Notes under the pieces: model-generated
Told to the model about the DNA's origin: nothing
Databases searched by the model: none
The model's input: the letters and a program-made list of their open reading frames with translations, nothing else
Shown here: positions 1 through 62,176 of the stretch, one piece after another
Layout of the letters: each line of letters begins with the position of its first letter
Numbering within the stretch: position 1 is the first letter of the stretch
Source of the DNA: a virus
Strand: one strand, 5' to 3'
Length of the DNA: 64,000 nt
IMG/VR virus record: IMGVR_UViG_3300037258_000046
Span: 10,209 to 74,208 of that record
Made by a program: the position numbers and the translations under genes

Positions 1-205
1 TCCCGTCAGCGCGCAACCGCTCGCGATGCGGATGCTTCACCACGCTCTGCGACGGCGTGCCGTCGCGACGCACCTTCCGGCAGCGCTCACCGGCTGCCGC
101 CTGACGCCGCGGGCACGCCACGCGCTCGTGGACCGTCTCCTGCCGCTCTACCAGCTCGCGCGCTACCCGCTCAAGCTGCTCGCCGAAGTCGTCGAGCGCA
201 CTCAC
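1..205 (-). CDS. partial small protein, phage zinc-finger-like (CPR..A..G..C...HPH.ER)
   Basis: GTG at 205 overlaps the stop of the upstream gene; frame MSALDDFGEQL... is open to the window edge. Confidence 0.5.
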   Translation of the reverse strand, partial: MSALDDFGEQLERVARELVERQETVHERVACPRRQAAAGERCRKVRRDGTPSQSVVKHPHRERLRADG

Positions 206-735
206 GCCCGCGCGCGGTCAGCCGCCGCGTCCACCGACGCCATGCCAGCACCCGCGCGCATCGTCCCGTTCGCGATCGCCTCGCCGTCGCTGTCGAGCCC
301 CATCGCGCCCAACGTCTCGCGCGCCAGCACCGCGACCGCCAGCGTGCGCGCCAGCTCGTCGAGTTCCTGCGCCGCCAGCTCCATCCGACCGGCATGCGTC
401 GCCGCCATCGCCGCGACCATCTCCTGCGCCGTCGCCGGATTCGCGAGCATCAGCAGGAACCCGACCCAACCGTCGCGCATCATGTCCGGCACAACGCGCT
501 GCACCGACCGCGCGTCAGCCTCCAGCACCTCACGGCCGACACGCTTCGGGCCCGCAAGCCCGTCGTCGCCGATGATGCCGTCAGCCACCCCGAGCACCAT
601 CACCGCGCCGCGGCCCTGCTCGACCGGCGTCGAACGCTCCACATGCCACGTCTTGCGCTCGATCGACAGGTCCCCCGGAACGATCAGCTCCTCCGTCCCG
701 TCCAGGTACGTCACGCGAAACATCTGACTAGCCAT
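202..735 (-). CDS. hypothetical protein (MASQMFRVTY...)
   Basis: ATG at 735 with GAGGAGG SD and the conserved leader/promoter at 755-775. Confidence 0.7.
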   Translation of the reverse strand: MASQMFRVTYLDGTEELIVPGDLSIERKTWHVERSTPVEQGRGAVMVLGVADGIIGDDGLAGPKRVGREVLEADARSVQRVVPDMMRDGWVGFLLMLANPATAQEMVAAMAATHAGRMELAAQELDELARTLAVAVLARETLGAMGLDSDGEAIANGTMRAGAGMASVDAAADRARA

Positions 736-778
736 CGCTGCCTCCTCTAGGTCGCGGGTTGCGCGGCGCAGCGTAGCA

Positions 779-1522
779 CTACACGCCGCTGAGCGCTCGC
801 AGCGCAACCGCGCCGTCGCCGCGCAGCTCGACGTGGCGTCCCGGCCCGAGCAGCGTCGCCACAACGTCCGCGACGTCCTCGCGGTCAGCCTCAAGCTGCG
901 TCGCCAGCTCAGCCTCCGTCATCGGCCCGCCACGGATCGCCGCGAGGATCTCGCCCTCCAGCCGCCGCAACCGTGCGGCGCGCTGATTGCCCATCCCGCC
1001 GTTCGTCACACCGTTGCGCTCACGCTCGATCCGGTCCCGATCAGCCGTGATCCAATACCGGGTCGCAGCGGTCTTGCCCTCCGTCGTCACGACCGACCTG
1101 TCGCGAAGCTCCTGGAGCGCCTTCGTCAGCCCACCCGAGCCCATCAGCTCACCCGCGTGCTCAAGCAGCGTCCGGAAGCTCGCGGGCTGATGCTCACGCA
1201 CGAGCTGCTCGACCTTGTCGCGGCGCTCCTGCGTCAGCGCGTCCTGCTCGTCCGTCGACAGCGGCGAGCGCCTGCGCGTCACCGTCGAGCGCAACGGCGG
1301 CAACGCGAGCCCTGTCCCGCGCGTAGCCGTGTCCTGCGACGACGGCGCCGCATCCGACTGCACGTCATGCCGTGCCGCGGGCGCCGGAGCGGGTGACAGC
1401 ACCTCGTACGCCGCGCGCAGCTTCTCCAGATGCCCGTCGAGCGCTTGCACCCGCTCGATCGCCAGCTCGCGCTTCTCTTCCGTCTCGGCGATCTCCGCCG
1501 CCAAAGCCTCCACCGCGCCCAT
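779..1522 (-). CDS. coiled-coil plus tandem winged-helix DNA-binding protein
   Basis: N-terminal coiled coil; wHTH-like segments (LTKALQELRDRSVVTTEG...RYW; PMTEAELATQL...DVVATL); GAGGAGG SD. Confidence 0.6.
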   Translation of the reverse strand: MGAVEALAAEIAETEEKRELAIERVQALDGHLEKLRAAYEVLSPAPAPAARHDVQSDAAPSSQDTATRGTGLALPPLRSTVTRRRSPLSTDEQDALTQERRDKVEQLVREHQPASFRTLLEHAGELMGSGGLTKALQELRDRSVVTTEGKTAATRYWITADRDRIERERNGVTNGGMGNQRAARLRRLEGEILAAIRGGPMTEAELATQLEADREDVADVVATLLGPGRHVELRGDGAVALRALSGV

Positions 1523-1566
1523 CGACCCGCCTCCTCGTCCACCGTCGGATTGCGCGACGCAACGTA

Positions 1567-1851
1567 TCAGCGCACAACGACAGTGCGCTTGCGCTCCGCG
1601 CCACACCGACGGCACTTGTCCAGCTCCACGAAGTAGCCCGGATGCGGACGCCGCATCAGCGCCACGATCCGCCAGTCATGGAACCCCGGCGGGCACTCCG
1701 GCGACGTCGCATTGAGCAGCGCGCTCACCCCCGCACCCGCGACAGCGACAGCGACAGCGAAGATCACGGCCTCGTTGTTCCACGTCGCCGACAGGATCAG
1801 CACCGCGACCATCGTCGCTGCCAGCACGATCAGGCCAGCCCACCCTCGCAT
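1567..1851 (-). CDS. small membrane protein with C-terminal Zn-ribbon-like motif
   Basis: Two hydrophobic segments, C..G.HDW and CRRC; leaderless start 6 nt after TAGGCT. Confidence 0.6.
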   Translation of the reverse strand: MRGWAGLIVLAATMVAVLILSATWNNEAVIFAVAVAVAGAGVSALLNATSPECPPGFHDWRIVALMRRPHPGYFVELDKCRRCGAERKRTVVVR

Positions 1852-1959
1852 GCCGGGAGCCTACAACGCGCGAAGGCGCCTCTTGTCCAGAGACGCCCTC
1901 GCTGACACCGGCTCCGCCGGGGTCGATCGCGCCACCATCGTGTCACGCGCCCCGGACGC

Positions 1960-1996
1960 AAAGAGAGCCGCCCGCGTGCTCGCGCGGACGGCTCCC
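1960..1996 (-). terminator. intrinsic terminator after the collagen-like gene
   Basis: Hairpin 1963-1976/1983-1996 followed by TTT on the minus strand. Confidence 0.6.
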
Positions 1997-2022
1997 TGAG
2001 TGTCTGAGACGACGCCTACAGC

Positions 2023-3000
2023 TTAGCCGTCGATGTTGCCCGTGCCCCCGTTGGCACCGCTCGGCGTGTTGCTATCGACCCACGACTCGTTCGCGTTCGC
2101 GTTCGAGTGATAGACGAAATCGTAGTTGTCGAGCGCGTACGTCGAGCCCGGGAAGTACGCCGCCTCGAACGCCGCGTTGCCCGCCTCGGCGCTAGACCCG
2201 CTCGTCGTGTGAGCATCGCACGCCGAGCAGCTCGCGACCGGATCGAAGTCCGCAGACTCGCCAGCAGCAGGCGCCGGAACGACCCACGACTCCGTGCCGT
2301 AGAACGTGCCAGTCACTCCACCGACCTGCGGCGGCCCCGGGCACGTCCCGGGATTCGGCTCGTCCACCGACGCGATCGTCGTGAACGTGCCCGTGATCAG
2401 CTCCGACACGTCGTAGCTGCCGTCCGGCAACGGGTTGACCTGGAAGGTCCGGCTGTAGCTGTCGTTCGCCCACGCGTTGCCACAGTCGCCGCTATCCGGC
2501 CCCGAGTTGCTCGCGTAGGTGTAGGTGAACGCGCCGTTGCTTCCCGGCGTGCCAGCGGGCCCCTGCGGGCCCTCAGCGCCGTCCGAGCCGTTGAAGCCAC
2601 GCGGACCCTGCTCGCCCTGAACGCCCTGCGGTCCCTGAGCGCCCTGCGCGCCGGTAGCGCCAGTGTCGCCCTTGATGCCGTTCGCGTCCACGCCAGCCAC
2701 GCCCTGCGGGCCCTGCGGGCCCTGCGGCCCGACGGCGCCCTGCGGACCAGCCGGGCCCTGCGGCCCGGGAGCACCCGTCGCACCCGTCAGACCTGTAGCG
2801 CCCGTGTCGCCCTTCGGGCCCTGAATGCCGACCGTGATCGCGTTGCCCTCGAACTTCTTGAGCACGCTCGGCGCGACCTGCGACGTCGACGTGATCAGGT
2901 AGTGGTGCTTCTTCTTGCCCGCGGCCAGCGCCGCGCCTGTACAACCGAACGCCACGACGGCCACAGCCGCCAGCAGCGTCAGGATCTTTGAAACTCGCAT
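2023..3000 (-). CDS. exported collagen-like (Gly-X-Y repeat) protein
   Basis: Signal peptide ([26 protein letters not shown]), about 30 GXY triplets, Cys-containing C-terminal domain. Confidence 0.85.
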
Positions 3001-3056
3001 CAGACCTGCTCCTTGTTCGGGTTGCCCTGCCTAGTAATGCGACACACTGTAGCAGC

Positions 3057-3281
3057 TCAGTGCGTCACGTAGCGACTCGTTCCCGTCGACGAATCCCACA
3101 CCCGCCACGGCGGCCCGAAGCTCGACGGCGGCGTCGCCAGCGTGCGAGCGTACTCGACCTGGAGCTGACACCGCCGCGAGCAGAACTCGACGCCCACGAG
3201 CGCGTGAGCGCCTTTCCAGCGCGACCCGAGCGCCAGCACGTCGAACGTGCGACGGCAGCCCGGGTTCGCGCACGCGGCCAC
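3057..3281 (-). CDS. small Cys-rich (Zn-finger) protein
   Basis: CANPGC...FCSRRC motif. Confidence 0.5.
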   Translation of the reverse strand: MAACANPGCRRTFDVLALGSRWKGAHALVGVEFCSRRCQLQVEYARTLATPPSSFGPPWRVWDSSTGTSRYVTH

Positions 3282-3283
3282 GA

Positions 3284-3571
3284 CTACAGCGCGCGAACCA
3301 TCACGCGCAGCAGCAGCCACTCCCCGTCGACGAGCGCCTCCGCCACGTAGTCGCGCTTCTGCACCTCCAGCACGCGCATCGCCATCTCCGTGTTCTCGTA
3401 GTGGAGGTGATAGTCGAAGTCCTCGGGGATCCGCGCGCACATCTCCCACAGCCTGCCGATCTCGACGCCAAGCGTGAACTGCGGATCGTCGCTCTCGAAC
3501 GGCAAGACCGGCACCTCGCCGTAGCTGCCGTGACCTTCCTGCTCCGTGAAGTCCTCGCCCTCGTCGCTCAC
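3284..3571 (-). CDS. hypothetical protein
   Basis: Acidic globular-looking ORF, GTGA overlap with the upstream gene. Confidence 0.55.
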   Translation of the reverse strand: MSDEGEDFTEQEGHGSYGEVPVLPFESDDPQFTLGVEIGRLWEMCARIPEDFDYHLHYENTEMAMRVLEVQKRDYVAEALVDGEWLLLRVMVRAL

Positions 3572-3906
3572 GACTTCACCCGCTGCGCGAGCCACTCGCG
3601 CGCCGCCTTGTCCGCCTCGCGCTCGACCGTCGTCGTGTGCCGCCAGTGCTCGTGACCCTCCGCGCACAGATTGCAGTCCGTCAGCCTCGCGCCATACACG
3701 AGCAGCTTGCGCCCAGCGTTCTCGACCCACTCAGCCTTCCGTGCCTCCATGTCCGCGAGCAGCTCCGGCGTCGGCTCGACACCCGCCGGATCGAGCCACC
3801 CGAACGTGCCGCCGCAATCCAAGCAGTAGAACTCCGCGCCCGAGAACGCGAGCGTCATCACGACCGGCACCCGGCACTTCGGACACATCGCGATCCTGCG
3901 GCTCAC
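3568..3906 (-). CDS. Zn-ribbon hypothetical protein
   Basis: CPKC, CLDC and CNLC motifs; coupled start/stop. Confidence 0.6.
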   Translation of the reverse strand: MSRRIAMCPKCRVPVVMTLAFSGAEFYCLDCGGTFGWLDPAGVEPTPELLADMEARKAEWVENAGRKLLVYGARLTDCNLCAEGHEHWRHTTTVEREADKAAREWLAQRVKS

Positions 3907-4360: not shown

Positions 4361-4947
4361 CGCGCCTGATCCGCGTCGCGAGCAGCGATCACGTCGCGGA
4401 AGTCCTCCGGCGCGCCGCCGTGATCGGGATGCGCGCGCTTGAGCGCCTCAGCGAGAGATCCCGCATCCTCGATCAGCTCGCGGCCGTGCGCGGCGTTGCC
4501 CTCACCCACAGCCGCTTCGAGCTGCTTCCACCCGGCATACTGCTCGCCGCGGCGCGTCACGCCGTACCTGTCGACCGCCCTGAGCGCCTCCAGCGCCAGC
4601 GCGACGCCTCGCACGTTGTCTCGCCAGTCGACGAACGTCGTGACCTCGTAGCGAAGCTGGGGATGCCCCACAACGCGCATCGCTTGGAAGCTCAGCACGA
4701 TCCCCGCGCTGCGAGCGTTGCGAGCAGCTCGTGGCAGACCGTCTTGGCGCAGATCGCTCTCGCGGAAGTCCATCTCCAGCACCGCCGCGCGAGCGCCATG
4801 CAGATCCAGCTCGCGCGTCAGCAGCCGCACCGTCGAGCGCCAAGGCGCTTTGAACTGCGAGTGCATCGCGCCGTGCGCGAGCAGCGGACGCTCCAGCGGC
4901 CGGAACGTCACGAGCCTCGACAGCGCGAAGTAGTCCTCGCCGCTCAT
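4357..4947 (-). CDS. phage protein with C-terminal J-domain-like HPD motif
   Basis: WRDNVRGVALALEALRAVDRYGV...QYAGWKQL and AHPDHGG. Confidence 0.7.
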   Translation of the reverse strand: MSGEDYFALSRLVTFRPLERPLLAHGAMHSQFKAPWRSTVRLLTRELDLHGARAAVLEMDFRESDLRQDGLPRAARNARSAGIVLSFQAMRVVGHPQLRYEVTTFVDWRDNVRGVALALEALRAVDRYGVTRRGEQYAGWKQLEAAVGEGNAAHGRELIEDAGSLAEALKRAHPDHGGAPEDFRDVIAARDADQAR

Positions 4948-5261
4948 GCTTGCTCCGCGCGCACGCGCTCGTCCTCCGAGCGCACGCGCTCGTTGCGCTT
5001 CGACGGCAGCTCGCGACCCTGCGCCCGAGCGCGAACGCCCATCACGCGCAGCATCCACGCGCAGCACTCCTCGCACAGATCGAGTGCCCACCGCTCGCTG
5101 CCGTGGCCGGGCCCGGGCGTGCGCACGAACTCGCCGAACGGCCAGCCCGTCGGCTTGAAGAGCGCGTCAGCGCCGCACACGTCGCAGCGCAGCTCGACGA
5201 TCACGAGCGTCGACGTCGGCTTCATCAGCGTTCTGACTTCGCGCGTCGCGCTCACAGCCAT
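4944..5261 (-). CDS. Zn-finger hypothetical protein
   Basis: CDVC...DLCEEC. Confidence 0.55.
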   Translation of the reverse strand: MAVSATREVRTLMKPTSTLVIVELRCDVCGADALFKPTGWPFGEFVRTPGPGHGSERWALDLCEECCAWMLRVMGVRARAQGRELPSKRNERVRSEDERVRAEQA

Positions 5262-10435: not shown

Positions 10436-10491
10436 TCCTTAGTTCCGGGTTGCGTTGCAAACTGTAGCACAACGCGGCCCGGACGTGTCAA
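10436..10491 (-). promoter_or_regulatory. strong promoter TTGACA-N19-TACAGT with GCAACCCG leader and SD
   Basis: -35 at 10486-10491, extended -10 at 10461-10466, GCAACCCG at 10446-10453. Confidence 0.85.
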
Positions 10492-10988: not shown

Positions 10989-11300
10989 TCAGATCCCCAG
11001 CGCGCGGCGCTCGGCCTGCCAGAAGCGGCAGATGGGCCCGGTGTACTTCTGCTCCGTGTAGAGCGGCGAGTCGACGATCGCGCGCACCGCCTCGTTGCCC
11101 TTCGCCAGATGGTTGTCGATCGCGCGGCGCGTCGCTGCCGCGTTGCGGCCGGTCAGCGAGCCGTTGCCCATGCGCCGGTCGATCGACGTCAGTCCGTTCG
11201 TCGCGCGCTGGAGCTGCCCTTCGAGCCGCAGCATCTCGCGGACGTCCTGGAAGCTCGGCTCGCTCGTCTGTGTCTGTGTCTGTGTCTGTGTCGTGGTCAT
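10989..11300 (-). CDS. early hypothetical protein with N-terminal TQ repeat
   Basis: AGGAG SD and conserved leader; (ACACAG)n microsatellite encodes TQTQTQTQT. Confidence 0.7.
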   Translation of the reverse strand: MTTTQTQTQTQTSEPSFQDVREMLRLEGQLQRATNGLTSIDRRMGNGSLTGRNAAATRRAIDNHLAKGNEAVRAIVDSPLYTEQKYTGPICRFWQAERRALGI

Positions 11301-11306
11301 CGTCTG

Positions 11307-11355
11307 CTCCTGTCGTCGTCGGGTTGCGTTGCAAACTGTAGCACAACGCAACCCG
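11307..11355 (-). promoter_or_regulatory. conserved promoter/leader embedded in a 12-bp inverted repeat
   Basis: CGGGTTGCGTTG (11320-11331) and CAACGCAACCCG (11344-11355) flank TACAGT. Confidence 0.8.
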
Positions 11356-11366
11356 CGATGCGTCCG

Positions 11367-12360: not shown

Positions 12361-12885
12361 TCAGCCGCCGCACTCCGGCACCGTGACCGGCCACGCCAGC
12401 CGATGCCCCGGCTCCCAATAGTCGAACACGGCCACCTGCTCAGCAGGCGTCGCGACGACAGACCCCGCGAGCGGATCCTGCGGGTCGCTGCTCAACGGCC
12501 AATCCTCACCCATGTCGGCCGTCGCCTCGTCCCACGTCGACGGCTCGAACTGAAAGCCGCCCATGAATCCGTTCCCCGTGTTGATCGTCCAATCGTCGGT
12601 GCTCTCGTGCTCGAAGACGCACGACGCGAGCGCCGACATCGACGGCGCCGCGTCAGTCTCGACAACGACGGCCGCCGCGTGAGCCTCTGCGCGAGCATCC
12701 GCGCGCAACGCGATCCGACAATGCCAGCGGTCGAGGTGATGCGACCGACGGCAGGCGTGGCGTGCTACCCGAACGATGCAGCCCCGATGCGGGCCGCAGT
12801 GCTTCTCCTGATGATGAACGCTGCCAGCTACACCGAATCCGGCGAGCAGTGCAACGAATGTGAAAGCGAGTCGGTGGACTTCAAC
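12361..12885 (-). CDS. resuscitation-promoting factor (Rpf)-like lytic transglycosylase, secreted; start uncertain
   Basis: C..EHES...W.INTGNGFMGGFQF..STW...ATPAEQ...AWP...C matches the Rpf core; the frame extends upstream through a signal-peptide-like segment. Confidence 0.8.
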   Translation of the reverse strand, partial: VEVHRLAFTFVALLAGFGVAGSVHHQEKHCGPHRGCIVRVARHACRRSHHLDRWHCRIALRADARAEAHAAAVVVETDAAPSMSALASCVFEHESTDDWTINTGNGFMGGFQFEPSTWDEATADMGEDWPLSSDPQDPLAGSVVATPAEQVAVFDYWEPGHRLAWPVTVPECGG

Positions 12886-12935
12886 CGGCCTCCTCTTCGT
12901 TTTCGCGTCGTGACCACGACGCCGGGCGCCGAGCG

Positions 12936-13370
12936 CTAGTCGCTCGACCCTTCCGGGGTGACCTGCTCCCCCGAAGCTGTGATGGTGGCGCTGCCGTCTG
13001 TCAGCCGCTCAAGCCATGCCGAGCGGTGGGCGCGCATCTCCAGGATCAGGTTCGCGATCTGCTCCAGCTCGAAGCCGCTCGCTTTCAGGTACGCGACGAA
13101 CGCCGCATCGCGCTCAGCCTCGACCGCGGCGTCGAGCACGATCAGCGCGTGCATCCGCGCCTGCGGCGTCGACCACGACCACGACACCTCACCGGAGCGC
13201 AAGTGCACCTCGGGCAGCAGGTCGGAGTCGCGCACGATCGGGTCGACCCTGATCATGTCGCCGATCCCGGGCGCCGCGTTCATCTGCTCCGCCAGCAGCG
13301 ACTCCAGCGACCGCACGCGCGCGATCAGCTCCGCCTTCGACATGCCTCGCAGCTCGGCGCGCGCGCTCAT
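12936..13370 (-). CDS. hypothetical protein
   Basis: Helical ORF with GGAG SD. Confidence 0.55.
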   Translation of the reverse strand: MSARAELRGMSKAELIARVRSLESLLAEQMNAAPGIGDMIRVDPIVRDSDLLPEVHLRSGEVSWSWSTPQARMHALIVLDAAVEAERDAAFVAYLKASGFELEQIANLILEMRAHRSAWLERLTDGSATITASGEQVTPEGSSD

Positions 13371-18355: not shown

Positions 18356-19150
18356 CTACGCCTCTACCGGCTCGGCTTCGCGCGGCGCCAGCCCGGCCGC
18401 AGCAGCAGCAGCGCCGAACTGCGCCAGATGCAGCTCTTCGACGTACGCCAGCCGCGCGTCGACGGCCGTGTCCGATGCCGTGTCGACCGCGGGCGCGTCG
18501 CCGCGCTTGCGCGCGAACGCGTTGACCAGCTCGATCGCGGTCCCGACCGCCTGCTCCGTGACCGCGACGTCGTCGAGACGCACGTCGGCGCCGGGCTCGG
18601 CGAAGTCGTTGAAGAACGCCAGCTCGCACAGCATCAGCGCGTTCCCGCCGCGGCGCGGCCGCAGCACGCCGAGCTTCTCGCGCGACGTCGAGATCCACTT
18701 CACGACCGCCACGCGGTCGGTCTTGTGCAGCGCTTGCGTGAGCAGCTTGAGCGCCGGGCCCGTGCCGTTGCGCGGCTGAACCCAATACGAGCCGACGATG
18801 CGCTCCGTCGGCACCGATCGGTAGTCGATCGTCTCCAGCACCTCCATCGCCGGATGCGCCTCGACCGACGCCTCCGTGATCGCCGCGAGCCGCTCAGGGT
18901 CGAGCTTGATCACGCGGCTGTCGCTGACGCGCACCGCCTTGTAGACGCCATCTGCGGGCGTCCGCGAGCCGCCGCCGCCGCCGCCCATGGTCGACGTGAC
19001 CGGCACCGCCTCGCCCGTCTCCGGGTCGACCTCGTCGCGAACGTACTCCGTCTTCGGCTCACGGCTGTGCACCGTCTTCGCGAACGAAACCTCAAGCTGA
19101 AAGTCGCCAAATGCGATCGCCGTGTTCCGTGCTCCACGTCCTGCCATCAC
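18356..19150 (-). CDS. ku: Ku-like DNA end-binding protein
   Basis: IAFG...V; SYWVQP; LLTQAL..TDRVAVVKW...REKLGVLRP...LML..LAF match the prokaryotic Ku core. Confidence 0.85.
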   Translation of the reverse strand: MMAGRGARNTAIAFGDFQLEVSFAKTVHSREPKTEYVRDEVDPETGEAVPVTSTMGGGGGGSRTPADGVYKAVRVSDSRVIKLDPERLAAITEASVEAHPAMEVLETIDYRSVPTERIVGSYWVQPRNGTGPALKLLTQALHKTDRVAVVKWISTSREKLGVLRPRRGGNALMLCELAFFNDFAEPGADVRLDDVAVTEQAVGTAIELVNAFARKRGDAPAVDTASDTAVDARLAYVEELHLAQFGAAAAAAGLAPREAEPVEA

Positions 19151-25802: not shown

Positions 25803-27002
25803 CTAGAAGTCGACTGAATCGTCGCCGCTGCTACGCGGACGCCACCCGAGCGGCACGCCGAGCGTCGTGAGCTGCTGATCGAGCCAATTCAGCTCGTCGA
25901 CCAGCTCGGCGTCCTGCTTCTCGTTCGCGTTCTCGCGCAGCTCGTCGATCGCCGTCAGGCGCTCTAGGAACGGGTGCACCTGCGCACGCCACGTCGCGTC
26001 GCTCTCCCACCGCGCCTGCGCCGCAGTCCAGTCCGCGCCCGTCTCCTCGCCCGCCTCGGGCTCCACGTCGCCGGAGACGGCCTCCTGCGCGCCCTCGACG
26101 CCGTTCTCGGCCATCGCAGCCTCAGCGCTCGGCGACACATCGTCAGCCACGACGACGGCATCCTCCGGCTCGTTCTCGGCAAGCCACTGCTCCAGCTCGC
26201 GCTTCACCTGAGCGAGCTGCACCGGAGTCGCGCCCTGCGTCCTCGCGCGCAGCACGCCCTCCGTGAACGCCGTCGGGTCCAAGTCGCGGATGCGCTCATA
26301 CAGCGGAGCGATCTCCGGATCGAGCGGCTGAAAGTCACCGACGTCGGCGGCGCCAAGGCCACCGCTTGCGCCCGGCAGGTCGAGCCCAGCGCCCAGCTCG
26401 TCGAAGGGCACTGGCCCGGACACGCCATAGGTGATTCGCGTGATGTAGCTCGTCGCGGCTTTGACCATCATCGCGTGCAGAAATGACCATGCCGACCTCG
26501 CAGCGTCTTTGGCGTACTCCGCCCTCGGGGCGTAGAAGTAGCGATCCGGCTTGCCCTGACGGCGCAGGATCGCGTACGCGCCCACGACCTCGCCCCGCTT
26601 GCTCGGGTGGTCGTACTCGTGCACGATCGTGCGCTTGCCGTTCTCGGCGCGCCGAACGCGAAAGACGTCGTTCTCGCACACGACGTCGGCGTCGACGTCG
26701 ATGAAGTGCTCGTCGCGGCGCGCGATCTTGAGGTAGCCATCACGGCCGACCATGACCGCGAGCCTCCCCGGCGCGCCGTTCTTGCCCGGCATCTGCGCCA
26801 GCCAAATCTCGTTCAGCAGCGGATTCAGGTCGAGCGCCGCCGCCTCTTCGAGATAGCGCTGGAGCAGCGCCGTGTCGTTGATCGCGGGCGCGCCAACCGT
26901 GGCGGCAATCGTCGAGACGAGCGCCGGACTAAAAGTGCGCTTCGCCGCGGCGGAGAGACGGACTACGTTCGTGCCCGGAGCGGGCGGAGATTGCGTTGGC
27001 AT
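25803..27002 (-). CDS. bet: RecT/Bet-family single-strand annealing recombinase
   Basis: LNPLLNEIW...VGRDGYLKIA.R...GAYA..R...EY...W...M..K; upstream of the exonuclease. Confidence 0.8.
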   Translation of the reverse strand: MPTQSPPAPGTNVVRLSAAAKRTFSPALVSTIAATVGAPAINDTALLQRYLEEAAALDLNPLLNEIWLAQMPGKNGAPGRLAVMVGRDGYLKIARRDEHFIDVDADVVCENDVFRVRRAENGKRTIVHEYDHPSKRGEVVGAYAILRRQGKPDRYFYAPRAEYAKDAARSAWSFLHAMMVKAATSYITRITYGVSGPVPFDELGAGLDLPGASGGLGAADVGDFQPLDPEIAPLYERIRDLDPTAFTEGVLRARTQGATPVQLAQVKRELEQWLAENEPEDAVVVADDVSPSAEAAMAENGVEGAQEAVSGDVEPEAGEETGADWTAAQARWESDATWRAQVHPFLERLTAIDELRENANEKQDAELVDELNWLDQQLTTLGVPLGWRPRSSGDDSVDF

Positions 27003-27054
27003 CGTGGACTCCGTTCGGGTTGCAGTGCGAGCACCCTAGCAGCCGTGCCAAACG

Positions 27055-27095
27055 AAAAAACGGGCCGCCCGGGGAAGGTGTTCCGGGCGGCCCGT
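27055..27095 (-). terminator. strong intrinsic terminator
   Basis: CGGGCCGCCCGG/CCGGGCGGCCCG stem followed by TTTTTT. Confidence 0.9.
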
Positions 27096-27153
27096 GAGTG
27101 CAGCACCCCGACAATGACCAGTGCAACCCGGACGTAGGAGGGGGCGCCGCTTC
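27055..27153 (-). ncRNA. putative antisense small RNA complementary to the conserved GCAACCCG-SD leaders
   Basis: -10 TATGAT at 27160-27165; 10-bp stem 27141-27150/27100-27109; loop CUCCUACGUCCGGGUUGCAC; terminator at the 3' end. Confidence 0.65.
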
Positions 27154-27171
27154 CTACGCATCATAGCCGCT

Positions 27172-28356
27172 CTACGCCTTGATGATGAAGCTGCGAACCG
27201 TCAGGTACGGCGGAAGGTTGTTATGCGCCGCACCACCGCCCTGCGAGCTGATCGACAGCGCCCCCACCGACAGCGACGGGATCGACAGCGCAGGGATCGT
27301 GACCGCCGGGATCGCGTGCGTGTGCCCGAACCCCGTGAACTTGCGAAAGTCGTTCGAGATGAACGTGCCGCCCTCGACCGCGGAGGTGCCCGCGAGAATG
27401 AACGGCTCCCACTCGTTGCCCGACATCGCGCCGTTCGGGTTGTAGACGCCACCGTCCTCCCACGTCGGCTCGCCCGTCGGGCCCACCGACGCCGATCCGC
27501 CGCCCGTCGACCCGCTGCCCGTCGAGCCTGAGCCCGTCGCGCCGCCGTGGTTGTGCGACGGCGCCTCGCCGATCGTCAGCACATGCGTCGCCTCGCCACC
27601 GCCCGCGCCAGCAGTCAGCGCCGTCGCTCGACCGGCCGCGCCCGCCGAGCCCATGTTGTCCGGGCCGACCGCCGTGCGCGCCCGCATGTCCGGCAGCGCG
27701 AAGTTCCCCGCCGACACCGCCGTGCCGTGCGTCGCGAGATAGTCCGCGTTGTAGAGCGTCCCGATCACGCCATACAGCGCCGGGTAGGTCGCCTGCGCCA
27801 CCTGCGACCCGTCGCAGATCAGCCACCCCGTCGGCGCGGCCGAGCCGCTCCACGGCAGCGGGCCGAGCCCCGTCGGCAGGATCGGCGACGCGAGCAGGCT
27901 CGCGAGGTTCGGCTGCCCCACGAGCTGCGTGAGCTGCGTGATCGCCGTCCCGTTCCACGCGACCGTCGCGACCTTGCGATACGCGTAGACGCCCGTCGGC
28001 GTCGAGCCCGACGCCACGCTCACCATCGAGAAGCCCGCGGGCGAACTGTCGACGCTCGCCGTGTACGAGTTCGCTCCCGACGTCGTCACGAAGATGTCGT
28101 AGTTGCCCGCGGCACCCGACACGGTGCACGTCACCGTGCCCGAGTTCACGTAGCGGTAGAGCCCGCCGATCGAGATGCTGACCTGCTGATCGCCCGTCCC
28201 CGGGTTGTTTCCCTGCTGATTGACCGCGGAGAGCTGCGTCGTCCCGATGACCGCGAGCTGAAAGTTCGGCGCGGAGCCCGAGAGCATCTCCTGCACCGCC
28301 TCGAAGAACCGCGCCGCGGCCGCCTGCGAATAGCTGAGGGGAACGTCCTGTGTGAT
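27172..28356 (-). CDS. tail fibre protein with tail-collar domain
   Basis: PTGWLICDGS....YPALY.VIG..Y...F.LPDMR.R; GGEATHVLT..E.PSH.H; AHNNLPPY; the open frame extends to 28356. Confidence 0.85.
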   Translation of the reverse strand: MTQDVPLSYSQAAAARFFEAVQEMLSGSAPNFQLAVIGTTQLSAVNQQGNNPGTGDQQVSISIGGLYRYVNSGTVTCTVSGAAGNYDIFVTTSGANSYTASVDSSPAGFSMVSVASGSTPTGVYAYRKVATVAWNGTAITQLTQLVGQPNLASLLASPILPTGLGPLPWSGSAAPTGWLICDGSQVAQATYPALYGVIGTLYNADYLATHGTAVSAGNFALPDMRARTAVGPDNMGSAGAAGRATALTAGAGGGEATHVLTIGEAPSHNHGGATGSGSTGSGSTGGGSASVGPTGEPTWEDGGVYNPNGAMSGNEWEPFILAGTSAVEGGTFISNDFRKFTGFGHTHAIPAVTIPALSIPSLSVGALSISSQGGGAAHNNLPPYLTVRSFIIKA

Positions 28357-33913: not shown

Positions 33914-35221
33914 CTAGCCCTTCGTCTTCCCGGCGTGCACGACCGCCTTCGCCGTCTTCGGCCGAGCCGACGCCGCGAGATAGTGCGAGCCCTTCTGATT
34001 GTGCAGGCCACGGATCCGCGTCGACCCCGTCTTGCTCGACTGATCCTCCAGCCACGGATCGTTATAGCCGCACACGATGTCCATGCTGTAGGTCCCCGCA
34101 CTGACCGCGTGCGTCACCGACTGCACGTAAACCATCTGATTGAACTTGATCTCCGGGATCGTCAGGAGCAGCGCGTCGCCGACGTCGACCCACGGGATAC
34201 CCGGATGCGTGACCTCGATGCTCGGATGCGGCGTCGCGTAGCGCGCGAGGTACTTGAGCCCATAGTCGTAGAGCCCGGCGCTCGTGTTGATGTTCGACGG
34301 CGCCGTGATCACCTTCTGCACGTAGCCGAAGCGCTTGATCCCGAGGTGATTCACGACCGTCATCTGCACCGAACTCGACCCGCGCCGCGCGTTCCCCGCC
34401 GACGTCTTCCCCGTGTTCTTCGCGTGCCCCTCAACCACGACCGCGTTCGCGTAGTAGCTGCCCGTGAAGCTCGACTTGACCGCCTCCATCAGCGCCGGGC
34501 CCAGCGGCAGCATGTAGCGCGGCTTGCTCACCTCCGTGACCTCCAGGTTCCCGCGGTCGTCGTCGATGACGTACCGGCGGCCGGTCAGCACGCGCTCCTG
34601 CTGCCACGCCTTGATGATCACGTCATAGGCGCTCGCGTTGTCCTTGATCGCCGAGAGCTTTGCCGTCGACGGCGCGATCTTCCCGATCGGCGCATTGAAG
34701 CGATTGCACGCGTAGACCGTGATCTCCGGCGCCGTCCACCCGCCCGGATGCTGCTTGTCCGGCGAGAACAACCACTTAGCCTTCGACTGCGTGAGCGACG
34801 CAATGTTGATCGTCTCCAGCGTCAGGTCCGTCACCCCTGCCACGACCGACTCCTGCGGGTTGCTCACGCCCAGCCGGAGAAACTGATACCACGGGCCCTT
34901 CGGGCCGGTCAGCGAGACGTCAATCTCGATCTGATCGGCCTGCTGAATCGTGTCGGCCTCGTCGTACCCCAGCGGCCGGTAGAACTCCAGCGTGCCCGTC
35001 CGCGGCGCCGCGCCGTTGCGCTCCCACCCGATCTGATCGACGAGCTGATCGAGGCTCACCGTCGGGCGCTGCTTGCGATACGCCGTCACCCGGAAGCTCT
35101 CGCGGCCGAACACGTAGTTAGTCATCTTCGGCTGCCAGTAGTTCTGCGCCGTCGTCGGCGGGAACGGGTCCGCATGCTTCGCGCCCGTCGCCGTCGCCGC
35201 GTACGCGGTAGCGCCGCTCAC
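33914..35221 (-). CDS. baseplate hub protein (XkdQ/gpD-like)
   Basis: IKRFG..Q...G.P.V..GD...V..V.H; position after the LysM gene. Confidence 0.7.
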   Translation of the reverse strand: MSGATAYAATATGAKHADPFPPTTAQNYWQPKMTNYVFGRESFRVTAYRKQRPTVSLDQLVDQIGWERNGAAPRTGTLEFYRPLGYDEADTIQQADQIEIDVSLTGPKGPWYQFLRLGVSNPQESVVAGVTDLTLETINIASLTQSKAKWLFSPDKQHPGGWTAPEITVYACNRFNAPIGKIAPSTAKLSAIKDNASAYDVIIKAWQQERVLTGRRYVIDDDRGNLEVTEVSKPRYMLPLGPALMEAVKSSFTGSYYANAVVVEGHAKNTGKTSAGNARRGSSSVQMTVVNHLGIKRFGYVQKVITAPSNINTSAGLYDYGLKYLARYATPHPSIEVTHPGIPWVDVGDALLLTIPEIKFNQMVYVQSVTHAVSAGTYSMDIVCGYNDPWLEDQSSKTGSTRIRGLHNQKGSHYLAASARPKTAKAVVHAGKTKG

Positions 35222-43981: not shown

Positions 43982-43992
43982 GACTCCATCTC

Positions 43993-52044: not shown

Positions 52045-52746
52045 TCACTGCACCTTCCTTTCAGCCGCGCGGCGGGCTGCCTGCCAGATCCGCGCGTCCA
52101 TGTCGTAGGTTCGTCCGTCGTTGCGCACGCCGTCCAGCGCGCCCGGCCAAAGCTCTCTCGCGGCCCGCAGCAGCGTCACCCTGAACTGCGTGCCGTGGTG
52201 CTCGTGGTAGTTGCAGATCACATGGACCAGCTCGTGCAGGATCAGCTCTTGCGCGCGCTCCAGCGGCACCGTCGGCCCGAACCGCAGCACCATCCGGTCG
52301 TACCACCACGCCCGCCCCGAGCACCCGCTGCCGATCGCCTTCGAGCGGATGATCTTCACCTCGGGCCGCCATGACGGCGGCTCCGGGTTGACCAGCTCGT
52401 CGCGCGTCGCGGCCCACCGCTCGCGGATCTCCGGCAGCCGCATGCACCGCTCGATGAACGCGAAGACGTCCAGCTCGACGCGCTCGCCATCGGCCGCGAC
52501 AGCCCACACGATCCATCGCTCGCGCTCGCGCTGACGTGCCGCCTTCTCCGCCGTCGCGCGCTTCTCGCTGCTGCGCAGCGCCGACGCGGCGCGCTTGCGC
52601 TCAAGCGACGGCGCCGTGCGCTTCACTAGACGGCCCTCCGCCTGCGAGCACGGCAAGCAGTAGCGCACCACCGCATCGGCGCGCGGACGCGTCGAGCCGA
52701 GCACACCCGGATGCTTGCCGTTCGGGCACTCCCACCGCACGCTCAC
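52045..52746 (-). CDS. SprT-like zinc metalloprotease
   Basis: ILHELVH...HHG..F; N-terminal Zn ribbon. Confidence 0.75.
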   Translation of the reverse strand: MSVRWECPNGKHPGVLGSTRPRADAVVRYCLPCSQAEGRLVKRTAPSLERKRAASALRSSEKRATAEKAARQRERERWIVWAVAADGERVELDVFAFIERCMRLPEIRERWAATRDELVNPEPPSWRPEVKIIRSKAIGSGCSGRAWWYDRMVLRFGPTVPLERAQELILHELVHVICNYHEHHGTQFRVTLLRAARELWPGALDGVRNDGRTYDMDARIWQAARRAAERKVQ

Positions 52747-52961
52747 GTGACCGGCCCTCCCGCCTCGCGCGAGAACGACGCGAGCACGCGCGGCAGAAGC
52801 ACCGTCTCCTCCGTCGCCTCGATCGTGAAGTCAGCCACGCCGCGCAGGCGTAGCTCCATCGCCAGCTTCTCGGCGATCACGGCAACGGCGCCCGCCGCCT
52901 CCTGCTCGCCGTCGTCCGCCTCCGTAGCGCGGACCTCAATCGTGTACTTCGCTGTCGCCAT
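52743..52961 (-). CDS. hypothetical protein
   Basis: AAGGAGT SD and conserved leader at 52978-52998. Confidence 0.6.
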   Translation of the reverse strand: MATAKYTIEVRATEADDGEQEAAGAVAVIAEKLAMELRLRGVADFTIEATEETVLLPRVLASFSREAGGPVT

Positions 52962-53129
52962 CGTTCACTCCTTCGTTCGGGTTGCGCTACACAGTGTAGC
53001 AGTCCCCGTTACGGAGTGTCGCGCGACTAGGTCAGCGGATGGCCTTGATGATCCACACGAACAGCGCCACCGCTGCCAGTGCGAGCACCGCGATCAGGAG
53101 ATCCCCCGCGACGGTCCCGAGCGCCAACA

Positions 53130-53874: not shown

Positions 53875-54549
53875 TCATAGGGTTGCCAACGCGCCGACGG
53901 CCGCCGACACGTAGTCCATCGTGCACCTGCAACCACCCCCGCACTGCGTCGACCCGTCACCCGGGAACGCAGGCCAATCCGCCTCAGCCATCGGCGGCTG
54001 ATCGCCCATGTACTCGCAGTCACCGCAGCTCGCGTCATCGTCGGCGCAGATCCACGCCAGCAGCTTCCCGTCCGCGTTCGCTGCCTGCGCGAACCCGTGC
54101 TGCTCACCGCCCCACACCGCGAGCCCCGCGCCCATCGCCAGCCGGTAGGCGTTCGACTTCGCCCACGCCGCGACCGCCGCCGCACTCGTGCGCCCCGGAT
54201 GGTCCTTCGAGCCCGGCGCCAGCTCCGGCGTCGTGTTGACCGCCGTGACCTCCCCGACCATCTTGTCGATCGACGCGTACGCCTTCCTGAGCGCCTGCGC
54301 CTTGCGATTCGGGTCAGGCTGCTTCGGAGCGACGAACTTTCGGTGTCGCGCCGCGTACACGGCTGCTACGGCCGCCTGCCCGTCCCGGCGCATGTGCTCA
54401 CGCTCCTCGGGCGTGAAGTCCTCGCCGTCGTCGGGATCCGCGTCCGGCACGTACGCCGCCACCCCGCGCGCCCATGCCTCGTCGTAATAGCGATCGAGCA
54501 GCTCGCGCTGCTTGGCCGCCCAGCTCGCCAGAGCGTTCGCGGGGAGCAC
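53875..54549 (-). CDS. MuF-like minor head protein
   Basis: W...DD..C.DC...PGDG.T.C...CRC; follows the portal. Confidence 0.7.
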   Translation of the reverse strand: MLPANALASWAAKQRELLDRYYDEAWARGVAAYVPDADPDDGEDFTPEEREHMRRDGQAAVAAVYAARHRKFVAPKQPDPNRKAQALRKAYASIDKMVGEVTAVNTTPELAPGSKDHPGRTSAAAVAAWAKSNAYRLAMGAGLAVWGGEQHGFAQAANADGKLLAWICADDDASCGDCEYMGDQPPMAEADWPAFPGDGSTQCGGGCRCTMDYVSAAVGALATL

Positions 54550-58338: not shown

Positions 58339-58740
58339 TCAGACATCATCGCCGCCCATTTCCTTGAGCCCTTGCGCGACGTGAAGCGCCAGCGTCCAGT
58401 AGTCGTCTACCTGCCCGGAGGTGGGCGGCTCATCGCTGTAGACCTTGATGGACTCCAGCGTGTCGCAGCCCGAGCACGAGCCATAGCCAACCTTGACGAA
58501 CCAGTAGTCACTCGGCTGGTAGCCGGTCCCACCGATCACGAAGACGAGCGTGCCCTGATAGTCACCGTCGTCGATCTGGTGGACACGTTCGGGATCGGGT
58601 CGCTCATAATCCTCAGAGTCCGCGACGTGCTCGACGACGAGCCGAACGATGTCCTTGTACTCGTCGGGATGCTTGACCGCGAGCTTCTCGCGGATGGCCT
58701 GCTCGCTGGCCATGAAACGGTCTACAAACGGCCGAATCAT
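58339..58740 (-). CDS. hypothetical phage protein
   Basis: IDDGDYQG...YGSCSGCD motif; SD present. Confidence 0.7.
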   Translation of the reverse strand: MIRPFVDRFMASEQAIREKLAVKHPDEYKDIVRLVVEHVADSEDYERPDPERVHQIDDGDYQGTLVFVIGGTGYQPSDYWFVKVGYGSCSGCDTLESIKVYSDEPPTSGQVDDYWTLALHVAQGLKEMGGDDV

Positions 58741-59029
58741 CGCGTCTCCCTTCGTCTTACGAATCGGCGGCCGCTCATTGCGGATCCCCGATGCTCATAG
58801 GCCACGGCCGATGCGCGACGTTCGCCGGATGCCGTGCAGCGCAGAAATCGCACCACGGCTCACCCGTCGCGTTCTCGCCCTCGATTGGCCGAGCCCGGGC
58901 CTCGCGACGTCGATCCGCCTCACGGCGTCGAGCGCGCTCAGCCTCGATCAGCGCGAATCTAGTAGCGAGCTGCGCTGTGCGAAAGATCCCCATTACGCTC
59001 TCCTTCTCCGTGGCGCAGGATGCCCTCCA

Positions 59030-60836: not shown

Positions 60837-61179
60837 GTCCAGCTCCTCGCTCGGGTTGCGGTTGGTCCTCAAGATAGCGGCGGCCCGCATCGGTCAGCGC
60901 GTACGCCGCCCCGCTGCGCCCATCCCGACGGCCCACATGGGCGATCAGCCCGCGGCCGCGACTCAGCGACGTGAGCACCGGGATGATCTGCTGCGCCAGC
61001 CCGAACGTGCGCGACCCTCTCCCGCGACCGCCCTGCCCGCGACCGCCTTGGATTATGCGCGCGCCGATCGCGTGCCCGATCTCGTTCGGCGTCATCGGGT
61101 AGCTGCTCGTGCGGCGCGCGCGGTCGAGCCCCTTGAGCACCTTGAGCTGTAGATCGGTCAGCGGCCGATCACTCGTCAT
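60829..61179 (-). CDS. winged-helix DNA-binding protein
   Basis: LT.LQL.VL..L...TP.EIG...L.SL...GLI...YALTDAGR. Confidence 0.6.
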   Translation of the reverse strand: MTSDRPLTDLQLKVLKGLDRARRTSSYPMTPNEIGHAIGARIIQGGRGQGGRGRGSRTFGLAQQIIPVLTSLSRGRGLIAHVGRRDGRSGAAYALTDAGRRYLEDQPQPERGAGHA

Positions 61180-61474
61180 AGCCGCTCGCGTTCCGGTACG
61201 CGTCGAGCGCGAGCCCGTCGGCCTGATCGCCGAGCCGCATGTGCTCCATCGCGTGCGCGACCGACGCCGCGGTGCTGTCGCCGAGATAGTCGCTTGACTG
61301 CGGGAACGGCGGAGGGTTCGGCAGCCACGCCCGCTCGACGTCTTCGAGGATCCGCCAGCGACCGTGACGGTCGTAGTACTCCACGCCATCCTTCGAGATC
61401 CGCAGCATCACGTGCGCCGTCGCCGTGCCATCCGGCTCGGCGTGCATCAGCGTGACCGCCTGCACCGTGCTCAC
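61169..61474 (-). CDS. hypothetical protein
   Basis: GTGA-coupled start. Confidence 0.5.
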   Translation of the reverse strand: MSTVQAVTLMHAEPDGTATAHVMLRISKDGVEYYDRHGRWRILEDVERAWLPNPPPFPQSSDYLGDSTAASVAHAMEHMRLGDQADGLALDAYRNASGYDE

Positions 61475-62139
61475 GACTCCGCCCCCGTCTCCGGCAGCTC
61501 GACGCTTCCGCCGAAGTTCCACGCCAGCCGCACCTCGTCAGCGACATTTAGCCCCGACTGAATCACGAGCGCCTCGCCATCCGCGAATCGCAGCACAAGG
61601 CGCGGCATGACGAAATCCCCCAGCCGGAAGGTGTTGCGCTCAATCGAGACGCCGCGCTTCGCGAGCTGCTGATCGAACCACTCCGGCGAGAACTCCTCCT
61701 CCTCCTCGGGCGACTCGACGACGCCATCGGCGCTCGTGCCCGCGAAGTGCCGCGCATCGAATCTCGGCGCGCCCTCGCGGAAGACTCGCTCGGCGATCAC
61801 CGCGCGCACCTTCCACGCGTCGCGATCAGAGATCAACTGCCGCACCTGCTCGGCCCCGGCCTGCCGCGTCTGCTCCCACGTCGCGCGCTCACGCTCAAGC
61901 GTCGCCCGCAGCCCGACAAGCTCGTCGTGCTGCTCCGTCAGCGTCGACTGCTCGCGCTCGGCGAGCAAAAACACTTCGAGCCCCGCCGGAGAAACTTCGA
62001 GCACCTCGACCGCGTACTCAAGCGCCGCGTCCTGCGTCTCGAAACCGTCGATCGGCTGCCGCAGCAGCGATCCCCTATGTCCCGTCAGTCGCGGCTGCCT
62101 CGCCACGTACCAGCGGCCCGGAGTGAACAGCATCGCCAT
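61471..62139 (-). CDS. coiled-coil hypothetical protein
   Basis: AGGAGG SD and conserved leader at 62156-62176. Confidence 0.65.
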   Translation of the reverse strand: MAMLFTPGRWYVARQPRLTGHRGSLLRQPIDGFETQDAALEYAVEVLEVSPAGLEVFLLAEREQSTLTEQHDELVGLRATLERERATWEQTRQAGAEQVRQLISDRDAWKVRAVIAERVFREGAPRFDARHFAGTSADGVVESPEEEEEFSPEWFDQQLAKRGVSIERNTFRLGDFVMPRLVLRFADGEALVIQSGLNVADEVRLAWNFGGSVELPETGAES

Positions 62140-62176
62140 CGTCGCCTCCTGTAGTCGGGTTGCGCGACAGAATGTA

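Follow-up and report, generated by a model that had tools for sequence, protein, structure and literature searches.

In Cluster K mycobacteriophages, 13-bp start-associated sequences (SAS) precede 11-19 mostly non-structural genes; nearly all of them share one orientation, and one opposite copy is not at a gene start (PMC3203893). Whether the partner of these sequences is "RNA or protein" was left undecided when they were described (Pope et al. 2011, PMC3203893), and in 2024 their role was still described as unknown (PMC11373665). The known phage antisense RNAs, for their part, have one or few neighbouring targets (PMC12197685). Here we analyse a 64,000-nucleotide stretch of viral DNA (the window), bases 10209-74208 of the 74,208-base IMG/VR record IMGVR_UViG_3300037258_000046, which is estimated to be ~70% complete and derives from an uncultured soil myovirus whose host is probably an actinobacterium. 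Positions given below are those of the window unless a record is named. At 27055-27170 on the minus strand, the window holds a short non-coding unit whose predicted hairpin loop is antisense to a leader motif, GCAACCCG, shared by many genes of the same phage. The reading we favour, a coherent but tentative prediction from the sequence that falls short of likely, is that this unit is an RNA-level anti-leader element tied to the late transcription unit. The observation itself, made in a preliminary description of the locus, is confirmed by our analysis, and the interpretation offered there is partly supported.

The leader motif is strongly overrepresented: GCAACCCG occurs 25 times in the window, where 2.67 copies are expected, and 0/100 shuffles reach 25. 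Twenty minus-strand copies (17 exact and three with one mismatch) stand before a Shine-Dalgarno (SD) sequence, which follows after 0-12 nt, and a start codon, in line with the earlier claim that the leader is common to at least 16 genes. Thirteen of these 20 copies lie exactly 7 nt downstream of a TANNNT -10 box of the extended type TGCTACAGT. The result is a promoter-leader cassette, TGCTACAGT-N7-GCAACCCG-N0-12-AGGAG-start, which recurs on the minus strand from 735 to 62163 in front of ~20 genes. Its 7-nt spacer is of two sub-types, TTGCAAC and GTGTCGC, and three cassettes carry TTGACA 19 bp upstream of the -10 box. The mRNAs that bear the leader are mostly early or accessory, encoding RecT, a Ku-like protein, and many small proteins of unknown function.

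A second promoter class consists of TANNNT followed, 6-7 nt on, by ATG or GTG without an SD. Such leaderless starts are found at 1851, 8287, 14890, 31187, 46382, 49868, 53474, and 57217, and also at 43990, and they belong to the first genes of structural operons. We used eight leaderless genes of the same phage (TANNNT-N6/7-ATG/GTG) as a ruler for the transcription start. Since the start in these genes falls 7-8 nt past the box, transcription of the cassettes would by this ruler begin at the G of GCAACCCG; consequently, the leader mRNAs with a copy 7 nt after TANNNT (13 copies) would begin with the motif itself. Three further copies depart from the cassette: at 34863 the motif stands directly after an upstream stop codon, before an SD and inside an operon, without a promoter; at 53886 it lies within the upstream gene, again before an SD and without a promoter; and at 3025 its distance from the promoter is 13 nt. 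These copies suggest that the motif tracks the start site and matters in RNA, not only as a part of the promoter. The mismatches of the three variant leaders are also compatible with an RNA duplex: two affect an end base, and the third is an internal C to U change opposite G, which leaves a wobble pair.

The antisense counterpart of this leader lies where the preliminary description had placed it, between the stop codon of the last late gene and a recombination gene. The late gene is a minus-strand open reading frame (ORF), 28296..27172, of tail-fibre or tail-collar-like type; it matches tail and tail-fibre families of PHROGs with E values as low as 1.6e-21, and its stop codon TAG is at 27174-27172. 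The recombination gene, whose ATG is at 27002, had been labelled "bet"; the gene is indeed present, and its identity is RecT family (PF03837). Between the two, the minus strand reads GCGGC followed by TATGAT (GCGGCTATGAT, 27160..27170), as had been reported, and this is a candidate -10 box of the late, leaderless-type class. The core GCGGCTANNNT occurs three times in the window, always on the gene strand and in intergenic DNA, and the other two copies (43993 and 49875) precede the leaderless starts at 43990 and 49868; hence the resemblance of the unit's -10 box to the late class. By the leaderless calibration, transcription would start at the 7th-8th nt past this box, at 27152..27153.

The RNA that would result, 27153..27055, folds at -58.6 kcal/mol (z = -5.6). 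Its first hairpin begins 3 nt past the predicted start, and its minimum free energy (MFE) is within the top 5% of 54-nt windows. In agreement with the earlier expectation, RNAfold pairs the 5' arm GCGGCGCCCC (27141..27150, in both the MFE and the centroid structures) with the 3' arm GGGGUGCUGC (27100..27109) in a stem of 10 bp, two of them G-U, around a 31-nt loop, CUCCUACGUCCGGGUUGCACUGGUCAUUGUC (27110..27140), that begins CUCCUACGUCCGGGUUGCAC. The loop is the reverse complement of GACAAT-N7-GCAACCCG-N5-AGGAG, as seen in the plus-strand copy at 27123, and therefore holds two boxes: an anti-SD, CUCCU, at 27136..27140 (CCCCCUCCU with the preceding C residues), and an anti-leader, CGGGUUGC, at 27123..27130, which is GCAACCCG on the plus strand. 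The anti-SD is mostly unpaired in the ensemble, with the exception of C27138 (probability of being unpaired, 0.29). An inner helix of 4 bp (CCGG/CUGG, 27131-27128 with 27121-27118) includes the CGG of the anti-leader. This helix leaves GUUGCA (27127-27122) as the apical loop and CUCCUAC unpaired in an internal loop, so that the 31-nt loop is not fully open.

Four bases separate this hairpin from an intrinsic terminator at 27055..27095, which was rightly called strong: a 13-bp G+C-rich stem (27095-27060; 12 G-C pairs and one A-U), a 10-nt loop, AACACCUUCC, and U6. A custom scan of the 74-kb record gave no other canonical terminator in intergenic DNA; a single further match, at 39081-39057, is inside the tape-measure gene. 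Judged from its non-coding content, late-type -10 box, hairpin near the start, and sole intergenic canonical terminator, the unit looks like a transcription unit.

The plus-strand copy at 27123-27142, GCAACCCG-N5-AGGAGG, is alone among the inverted copies in having an SD-like box as well. Its leader box is perfect (8/8), as is its SD box (6/6); its promoter-like part matches at 4/6 positions and, scored with the cassette matrix, is merely in the top 3.4% of the background. The composite GCAACCCG-N5-AGGAG is found three times, at 27123 on the plus strand and at 52968-52985 and 62146-62163 on the minus strand, where 0.11 is expected. On these counts, the inverted copy is not a product of chance. 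The leader at 62146-62163 (GCAACCCG-ACTAC-AGGAG) serves the gene at 62139..61471, and the one at 52968-52985, which is nearest to the anti-leader (16/18 identical), serves the gene at 52961..52743.

To relate the loop to its potential targets, we scored pairing as the duplex energy plus the opening energies, in the manner of RNAup. Against the 20 leader mRNAs the loop has a mean of -10.1 kcal/mol; for 47 SD-led start regions that lack the motif the mean is -0.2 kcal/mol (Mann-Whitney p = 1e-9), and for eight leaderless 5' ends it is -1.9 kcal/mol, so the motif-bearing genes stand out as the preliminary description had anticipated. In the predicted duplexes, GCAACCCG:CGGGUUGC and GGAG:CUCC act as two clamps and the spacer, which varies in length, bulges out; in 17 of the 20, the anti-SD is paired with (A)GGAG. 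According to this model, the seed is accessible in part, complementary to the leaders, and clearly selective against non-targets, whereas the absolute energy is not exceptional.

From the observed complementarity, fold, terminator, position, and promoter-like box, we infer that the unit is transcribed, that the RNA pairs with its targets in vivo, and in which direction it acts. The RNA could arise by two routes, either or both of which may operate. In one, a separate RNA of ~97 nt would be made from TATGAT, starting at 27153 or 27152; a promoter-driven small RNA (sRNA) of this kind is perhaps part of the picture, although we regard it as unlikely. In the other, the unit would form the 3' end of each late transcript that stops at the terminator, possibly freed by processing. 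In both cases, the hairpin loop would display CUCCU as anti-SD and CGGGUUGC as anti-leader, and base pairing through the two clamps, with a bulged spacer, would engage both the SD and the 5' end of the leader mRNAs. Such pairing would block 30S loading on the leader mRNAs, while the leaderless late mRNAs would be spared and translation would shift to them. The preliminary description had further proposed that in a read-through tail-fibre mRNA the anti-SD is hidden, because GCGUAGGA (27154..27161, minus strand) can pair with UCCUACGU (27139-27132). At equilibrium this masking is not borne out: in constraint folding, the GCGUAGGA/UCCUACGU helix is a minor conformer, 1.1-1.4 kcal/mol above the MFE (P ~0.10).

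The closest parallel that we found is in Cluster K. The genome of Adephagia (JF704105) has sixteen forward SAS and one reverse copy, at record 58682-58694, in the 432-nt non-coding gap between gp92 and gp93, and late transcription in this phage appears to begin within that gap (PMC11373665). Read on the gene strand, this reverse copy is GGCCUCCUAUCCC. It lies in record 58589-58744, where a hairpin of two tiers and ~19 bp (58,660-58,715) has it as its apical loop, CCUCCUAUCC; a second hairpin of 17 bp adjoins it, and the fold has an energy of -83.9 kcal/mol (z = -6.5). Among Cluster K records, 143 contain the gap region. Comparison of six diverged Anayavirus-type phages shows an invariant loop and stem changes that preserve pairing, with eight pairs changed on one side and one pair changed on both (GC to AU); non-pairing combinations occur only at one inner-stem pair, in two sequences. 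A palindrome, GCACA(A/G)CTGT(G/A)C, lies just upstream of the SAS hairpin and is kept in 10/10 aligned Cluster K phages.

The two systems have in common a lone antisense copy of a start motif, placed in a hairpin loop and tied to the late transcription unit. They differ in that the SAS, GGGATAGGAGCCC (13 bp, 3-9 nt before start codons), includes the SD, whereas GCAACCCG is at the 5' end of the mRNA with a separate SD; in that the antisense copy is on the 5' side of the late unit in Cluster K and at its 3' end in the soil phage; and in that the former are temperate siphoviruses, whereas the latter is a myovirus. No RNA role is proposed for the SAS in PMC3203893 or PMC11373665. The soil-phage unit is therefore an analogue of the Cluster K SAS system and not a member of it. 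The same arrangement in two unrelated actinophage lineages raises the odds that it is functional, without proving it. A broader idea would be that of a general actinobacteriophage switch of independent origin in the soil myovirus and in Cluster K1, in which the late transcript carries a hairpin-displayed antisense of the early start motif and anneals to the early mRNAs, so that ribosomes go to the late mRNAs, which are leaderless in the soil phage; we put this forward as a doubtful generalization.

Other described regulators resemble the unit in part. The C4 RNA of P1/P7 and the CI RNA of P4, which had been named as precedents, are likewise small structured phage RNAs whose loops pair with boxes that include the ribosome-binding site and thereby block expression; unlike the present unit, they are cut from the transcript that carries their few targets, and they confer immunity in temperate phages (PMC12197685). 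The soil-phage unit would have ~20 separate mRNA targets over 62 kb, and an integrase was not found in the 74-kb record. The suggestion of RNA-based immunity is accordingly unsupported. The precedent holds as an analogy of mechanism and not as kinship, and no Rfam family was matched at gathering scores. The permissive Rfam search of 26900-27300 (E up to 10) returned as its best weak matches ar14 (RF02344, 31.6 bits against a gathering score of 58.8) and CcsR1 (RF02791, 21.6 against 65.3), both from the terminator and the C/U-rich loops; the P1 C4 and P4 CI families and 6C were absent from the matches.

The families to which ar14 and CcsR1 belong, the "cuckoo" anti-SD sRNAs of Alphaproteobacteria, are of similar length (~100 nt) and have loops with CCUCC-type anti-SD boxes (PMC4615179). 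The terminator loop of the soil-phage unit is C/U-rich, as in these RNAs. On the other hand, the first helix could be aligned with them only through non-standard pairs, their CCUCCUCCC box is absent here (the loops read CCCCCUCCU... and AACACCUUCC), and the likely host phylum differs. The 6C sRNA of high-G+C Gram-positives binds many mRNAs at G-rich start regions through C-rich loops and without Hfq (PMC6486639). By analogy, 6C-like binding is a likely mode of action if the host is actinobacterial; 6C is, however, an RNA of the host, and its two loops are short and C-rich, without a long specific seed. sRNAs derived from 3' untranslated regions are either made from their own promoter (DapZ and MicL type) or processed (CpxQ type); they are Hfq-dependent, enterobacterial, and directed at host targets. 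Like such RNAs, the unit uses the terminator of the operon that precedes it, has a promoter-like box where the preceding gene ends, and carries its seed in a 5' hairpin. The differences lie in the dependence on Hfq, the enterobacterial setting, and the host targets, and in the soil phage promoter and processing are only candidates. Finally, RegA of T4 is comparable as a single late-acting factor that stops the translation of many early mRNAs through their start regions (PMC3014915), but it is a protein with a loose AU-rich target, while the candidate effector here is an RNA with an exact target box.

Several observations weigh against an anti-leader function. When the loop was shuffled, 25 such RNAs scored -5.6 +/- 2.8 kcal/mol and the best of them -11.7, compared with -10.1 for the native loop, which means that energy alone fails to single out the native sequence. 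The inner helix partly closes the seed, and opening the loop costs ~9 kcal/mol. The 5-nt spacer of the antisense copy, to which the preliminary description drew attention in the leaders at 62146-62163 and 52968-52985, is matched in only two of the 20 leaders. In a genome this rich in G+C, 10-bp stems are no rarity: 64 kb contain 93 hairpins of at least 10 bp and at most two G-U pairs. The promoter amounts to a -10-like hexamer only, and while the other two GCGGCTANNNT copies agree with the earlier statement that its context resembles that of structural-gene promoters, three copies against 1.5 expected are not significant as a count. Six leader genes (62163, 60859, 53886, 52985, 50459, and 34863) sit within the structural region, so the split between early and late genes is not clean. 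In Cluster K, Ekdilam has 17 SAS and a loop that matches at only 5 + 3 bases, and the loops of the homologous hairpin are different in Keshu, in SirPhilip, and in Pixie, which nevertheless retains the SAS (PMC3203893); the antisense copy is therefore neither universal nor required for the motif. The sole relative that we compared, IMGVR_UViG_3300009400_000005, is without RecT, motif enrichment, and the unit. Contigs from four other soil runs are identical across the unit and hence offer no variation to read, and the five runs in which the sequence occurs are all of soil DNA, with no RNA run among them.

Given these points, we considered what else could produce an inverted leader at this position. 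It may be a relic or by-product, left by inverted duplication or recombination at the boundary of the late and early modules, with a hairpin that merely stabilises the 3' end of the late mRNA. The loop matches the whole cassette end to end (the -10-like GACAAT, N7, GCAACCCG, N5, and AGGAG), as a copied cassette would; stems of such size are common in the genome, a terminator is needed at that place anyway, and shuffled loops bind nearly as well. A search of the loop region against the rest of the genome with blastn-short gave no significant similarity, and the copy could accordingly be old and decaying. Such decay, however, would have spared just the two boxes that matter in mRNA (8/8 and 6/6) and not the promoter part (4/6), and the copy is in a hairpin loop, on the transcribed strand, directly after a late-type -10 box, in an arrangement that an unrelated phage group has with a conserved loop. 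We consider a relic unlikely.

Alternatively, GCAACCCG may act in DNA, as an asymmetric site bound by a phage regulator of transcription, comparable to a stoperator or to an operator spanning +1 to +8, so that control would be transcriptional rather than RNA-based. The inverted copies at 27123 and 11348 would then be extra half-sites that form a palindrome or a loop with the neighbouring promoter copy. The spacing of the motif is rigid toward the -10 box (7 nt in 13 copies) and variable toward the SD, and almost all copies have one orientation, here 20 minus-strand copies at starts, much like the L5-type stoperators, which are asymmetric sites with one orientation relative to transcription (named in PMC3203893). 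The copy at 27123 is 107 bp, or ~10 helical turns, from the RecT copy, and those at 11348 and 11327 form a perfect 12-bp inverted repeat around a -10 box. For the ESAS repeats of Cluster K, moreover, the authors prefer DNA-binding proteins (PMC3203893, PMC11373665). What a DNA site leaves unexplained is the AGGAGG at a leader-like distance in the inverted copy (p ~0.01 from base composition), as well as the promoterless copies before SDs (34863 and 53886) and the copy displaced by 13 nt (3025). A candidate repressor was not identified, and Pfam searches of the small leader-gene products gave nothing. We hold this explanation to be quite unlikely. A third possibility is that the element acts in cis only, the anti-leader pairing with the RecT leader 100 nt downstream in read-through late RNA and silencing RecT and the exonuclease, with the 11348 repeat doing the same for the gene at 11300. 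Both inverted copies are just upstream of a same-strand leader copy, and the anti-leader and the RecT leader match in UGCAACCCG, ACG, and GAG, in this order (-9.2 kcal/mol). Yet the intervening 13-bp G+C-rich terminator with U6 should make read-through rare, and the MFE fold of the 201-nt read-through RNA keeps the first hairpin, unpaired with the RecT leader. A purely cis-acting role is very unlikely in our view.

The RecT leader concerned is part of a promoter-leader at 27000..27041 on the minus strand, with TGCTAGGGT-N9-GCAACCCG (27023-27016), AAC, GGAG, and the ATG at 27002. The second inverted copy (11316..11357, minus strand) is the perfect 12-bp inverted repeat CGGGTTGCGTTG-N12-CAACGCAACCCG around the -10 box and promoter of the gene at 11300..10989, and it could be either a cis anti-leader that hides the leader in read-through RNA or a palindromic site for a DNA-binding protein. 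The other leader copies on the minus strand, given by their first bases, are at 60859, 53886 (GCAACCCT), 50459, 34863, 23343, 20566, 19172, 18330 (TCAACCCG), 16607, 14358, 12262, 11327, 10453 (that is, 10446..10453), 7233, 3025, 1553 (GCAATCCG), and 762, all of them exact except those at 53886, 18330, and 1553.

Further readings of the unit were tried and rejected. A small protein is unlikely, because the 42-codon frame at 27164..27036 has a G+C content of ~0.62 at third positions (hand count), compared with 0.8-0.9 in genes, and passes through the terminator. A plus-strand gene behind the inverted leader would have no start codon 5-10 nt past AGGAGG; the plus-strand fold is unremarkable (z = -0.6), and the -10-like GACAAT is without the first T. 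Descent from a fibre-coding segment for "YVGLH" was also discarded: the look-alike at record 4821 is in a coding frame, and its similarity by blastn-short is not significant. The minus-strand ORF concerned (record 4537-5175) encodes YYVGLHNGSPG..., and its DNA at 4821 (CTACGTC-GGGTTGCAC) resembles the anti-leader by chance. A reading as 16S rRNA mimicry of GCGCAACCC was likewise dropped.

Searches for the unit elsewhere were largely negative. Megablast and tblastn against the phage collection gave no relative, and scans of viral contigs with the RecT peptide and the promoter pattern gave no relative with the unit. The promoter-leader pattern returned only single matches in metagenome and genome contigs, chance-like or coding (for example, Y-S-L-A-R-N-P). 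IMGVR_UViG_3300009400_000005 (67.9 kb, 64% G+C) has a syntenic structural module with 45-70% protein identity (61% in the sheath); besides the absences given above, it showed no repeated regulatory motif and no canonical terminator, and its gene order after the fibre differs. The regulatory layout is thus not conserved at this distance. A 70.5-kb Logan/ENA contig has a RecT match of 40% and a sheath match of 50%.

As for the phage itself, the window has a G+C content of 68.7%, and its minus strand holds nearly all genes. PHROGs and Pfam identify a contractile-tail phage: genes for portal, sheath, tape measure, baseplate, and tail fibres are present, and after them come those for a RecT-family protein and an exonuclease (27002-24448). 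Beyond the recombination genes there are Ku-like, RusA-like, and IstB/AAA-like proteins and an Rpf-like transglycosylase domain. The Ku-like DNA-end-binding protein (18356-19147, minus strand; PF02735, E = 9e-15) is preceded by a leader cassette, and the Rpf-like domain (PF06737, E = 7e-10) lies in an open frame without an obvious canonical start (12364-13008, minus strand). The assignment of an actinobacterial host derives only from the Rpf-like domain, the leaderless TANNNT promoters, and the Ku-like gene; the closest RecT homologue (57%) carries the label of a Myxococcales metagenome-assembled genome, and a protein atlas search gave no host signal. Outside the window, an open frame of at least 1229 codons (record 2-3688, minus strand) runs off the contig end.

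If the anti-leader element acts as predicted, one RNA would be directed against the leader of ~20 phage mRNAs while the leaderless late genes are exempt, which would be a new form of translational timing of infection. If the switch were general, the SAS motifs would gain their first function since they were described in 2011. Through the parallel with Cluster K1, the idea can be tested straight away in a culturable system, as Adephagia has published RNA-seq and recombineering tools (PMC11373665). Even if the unit is only a relic, the promoter-leader cassette together with the leaderless late class still represents an unusually clear regulatory map of an uncultured phage.

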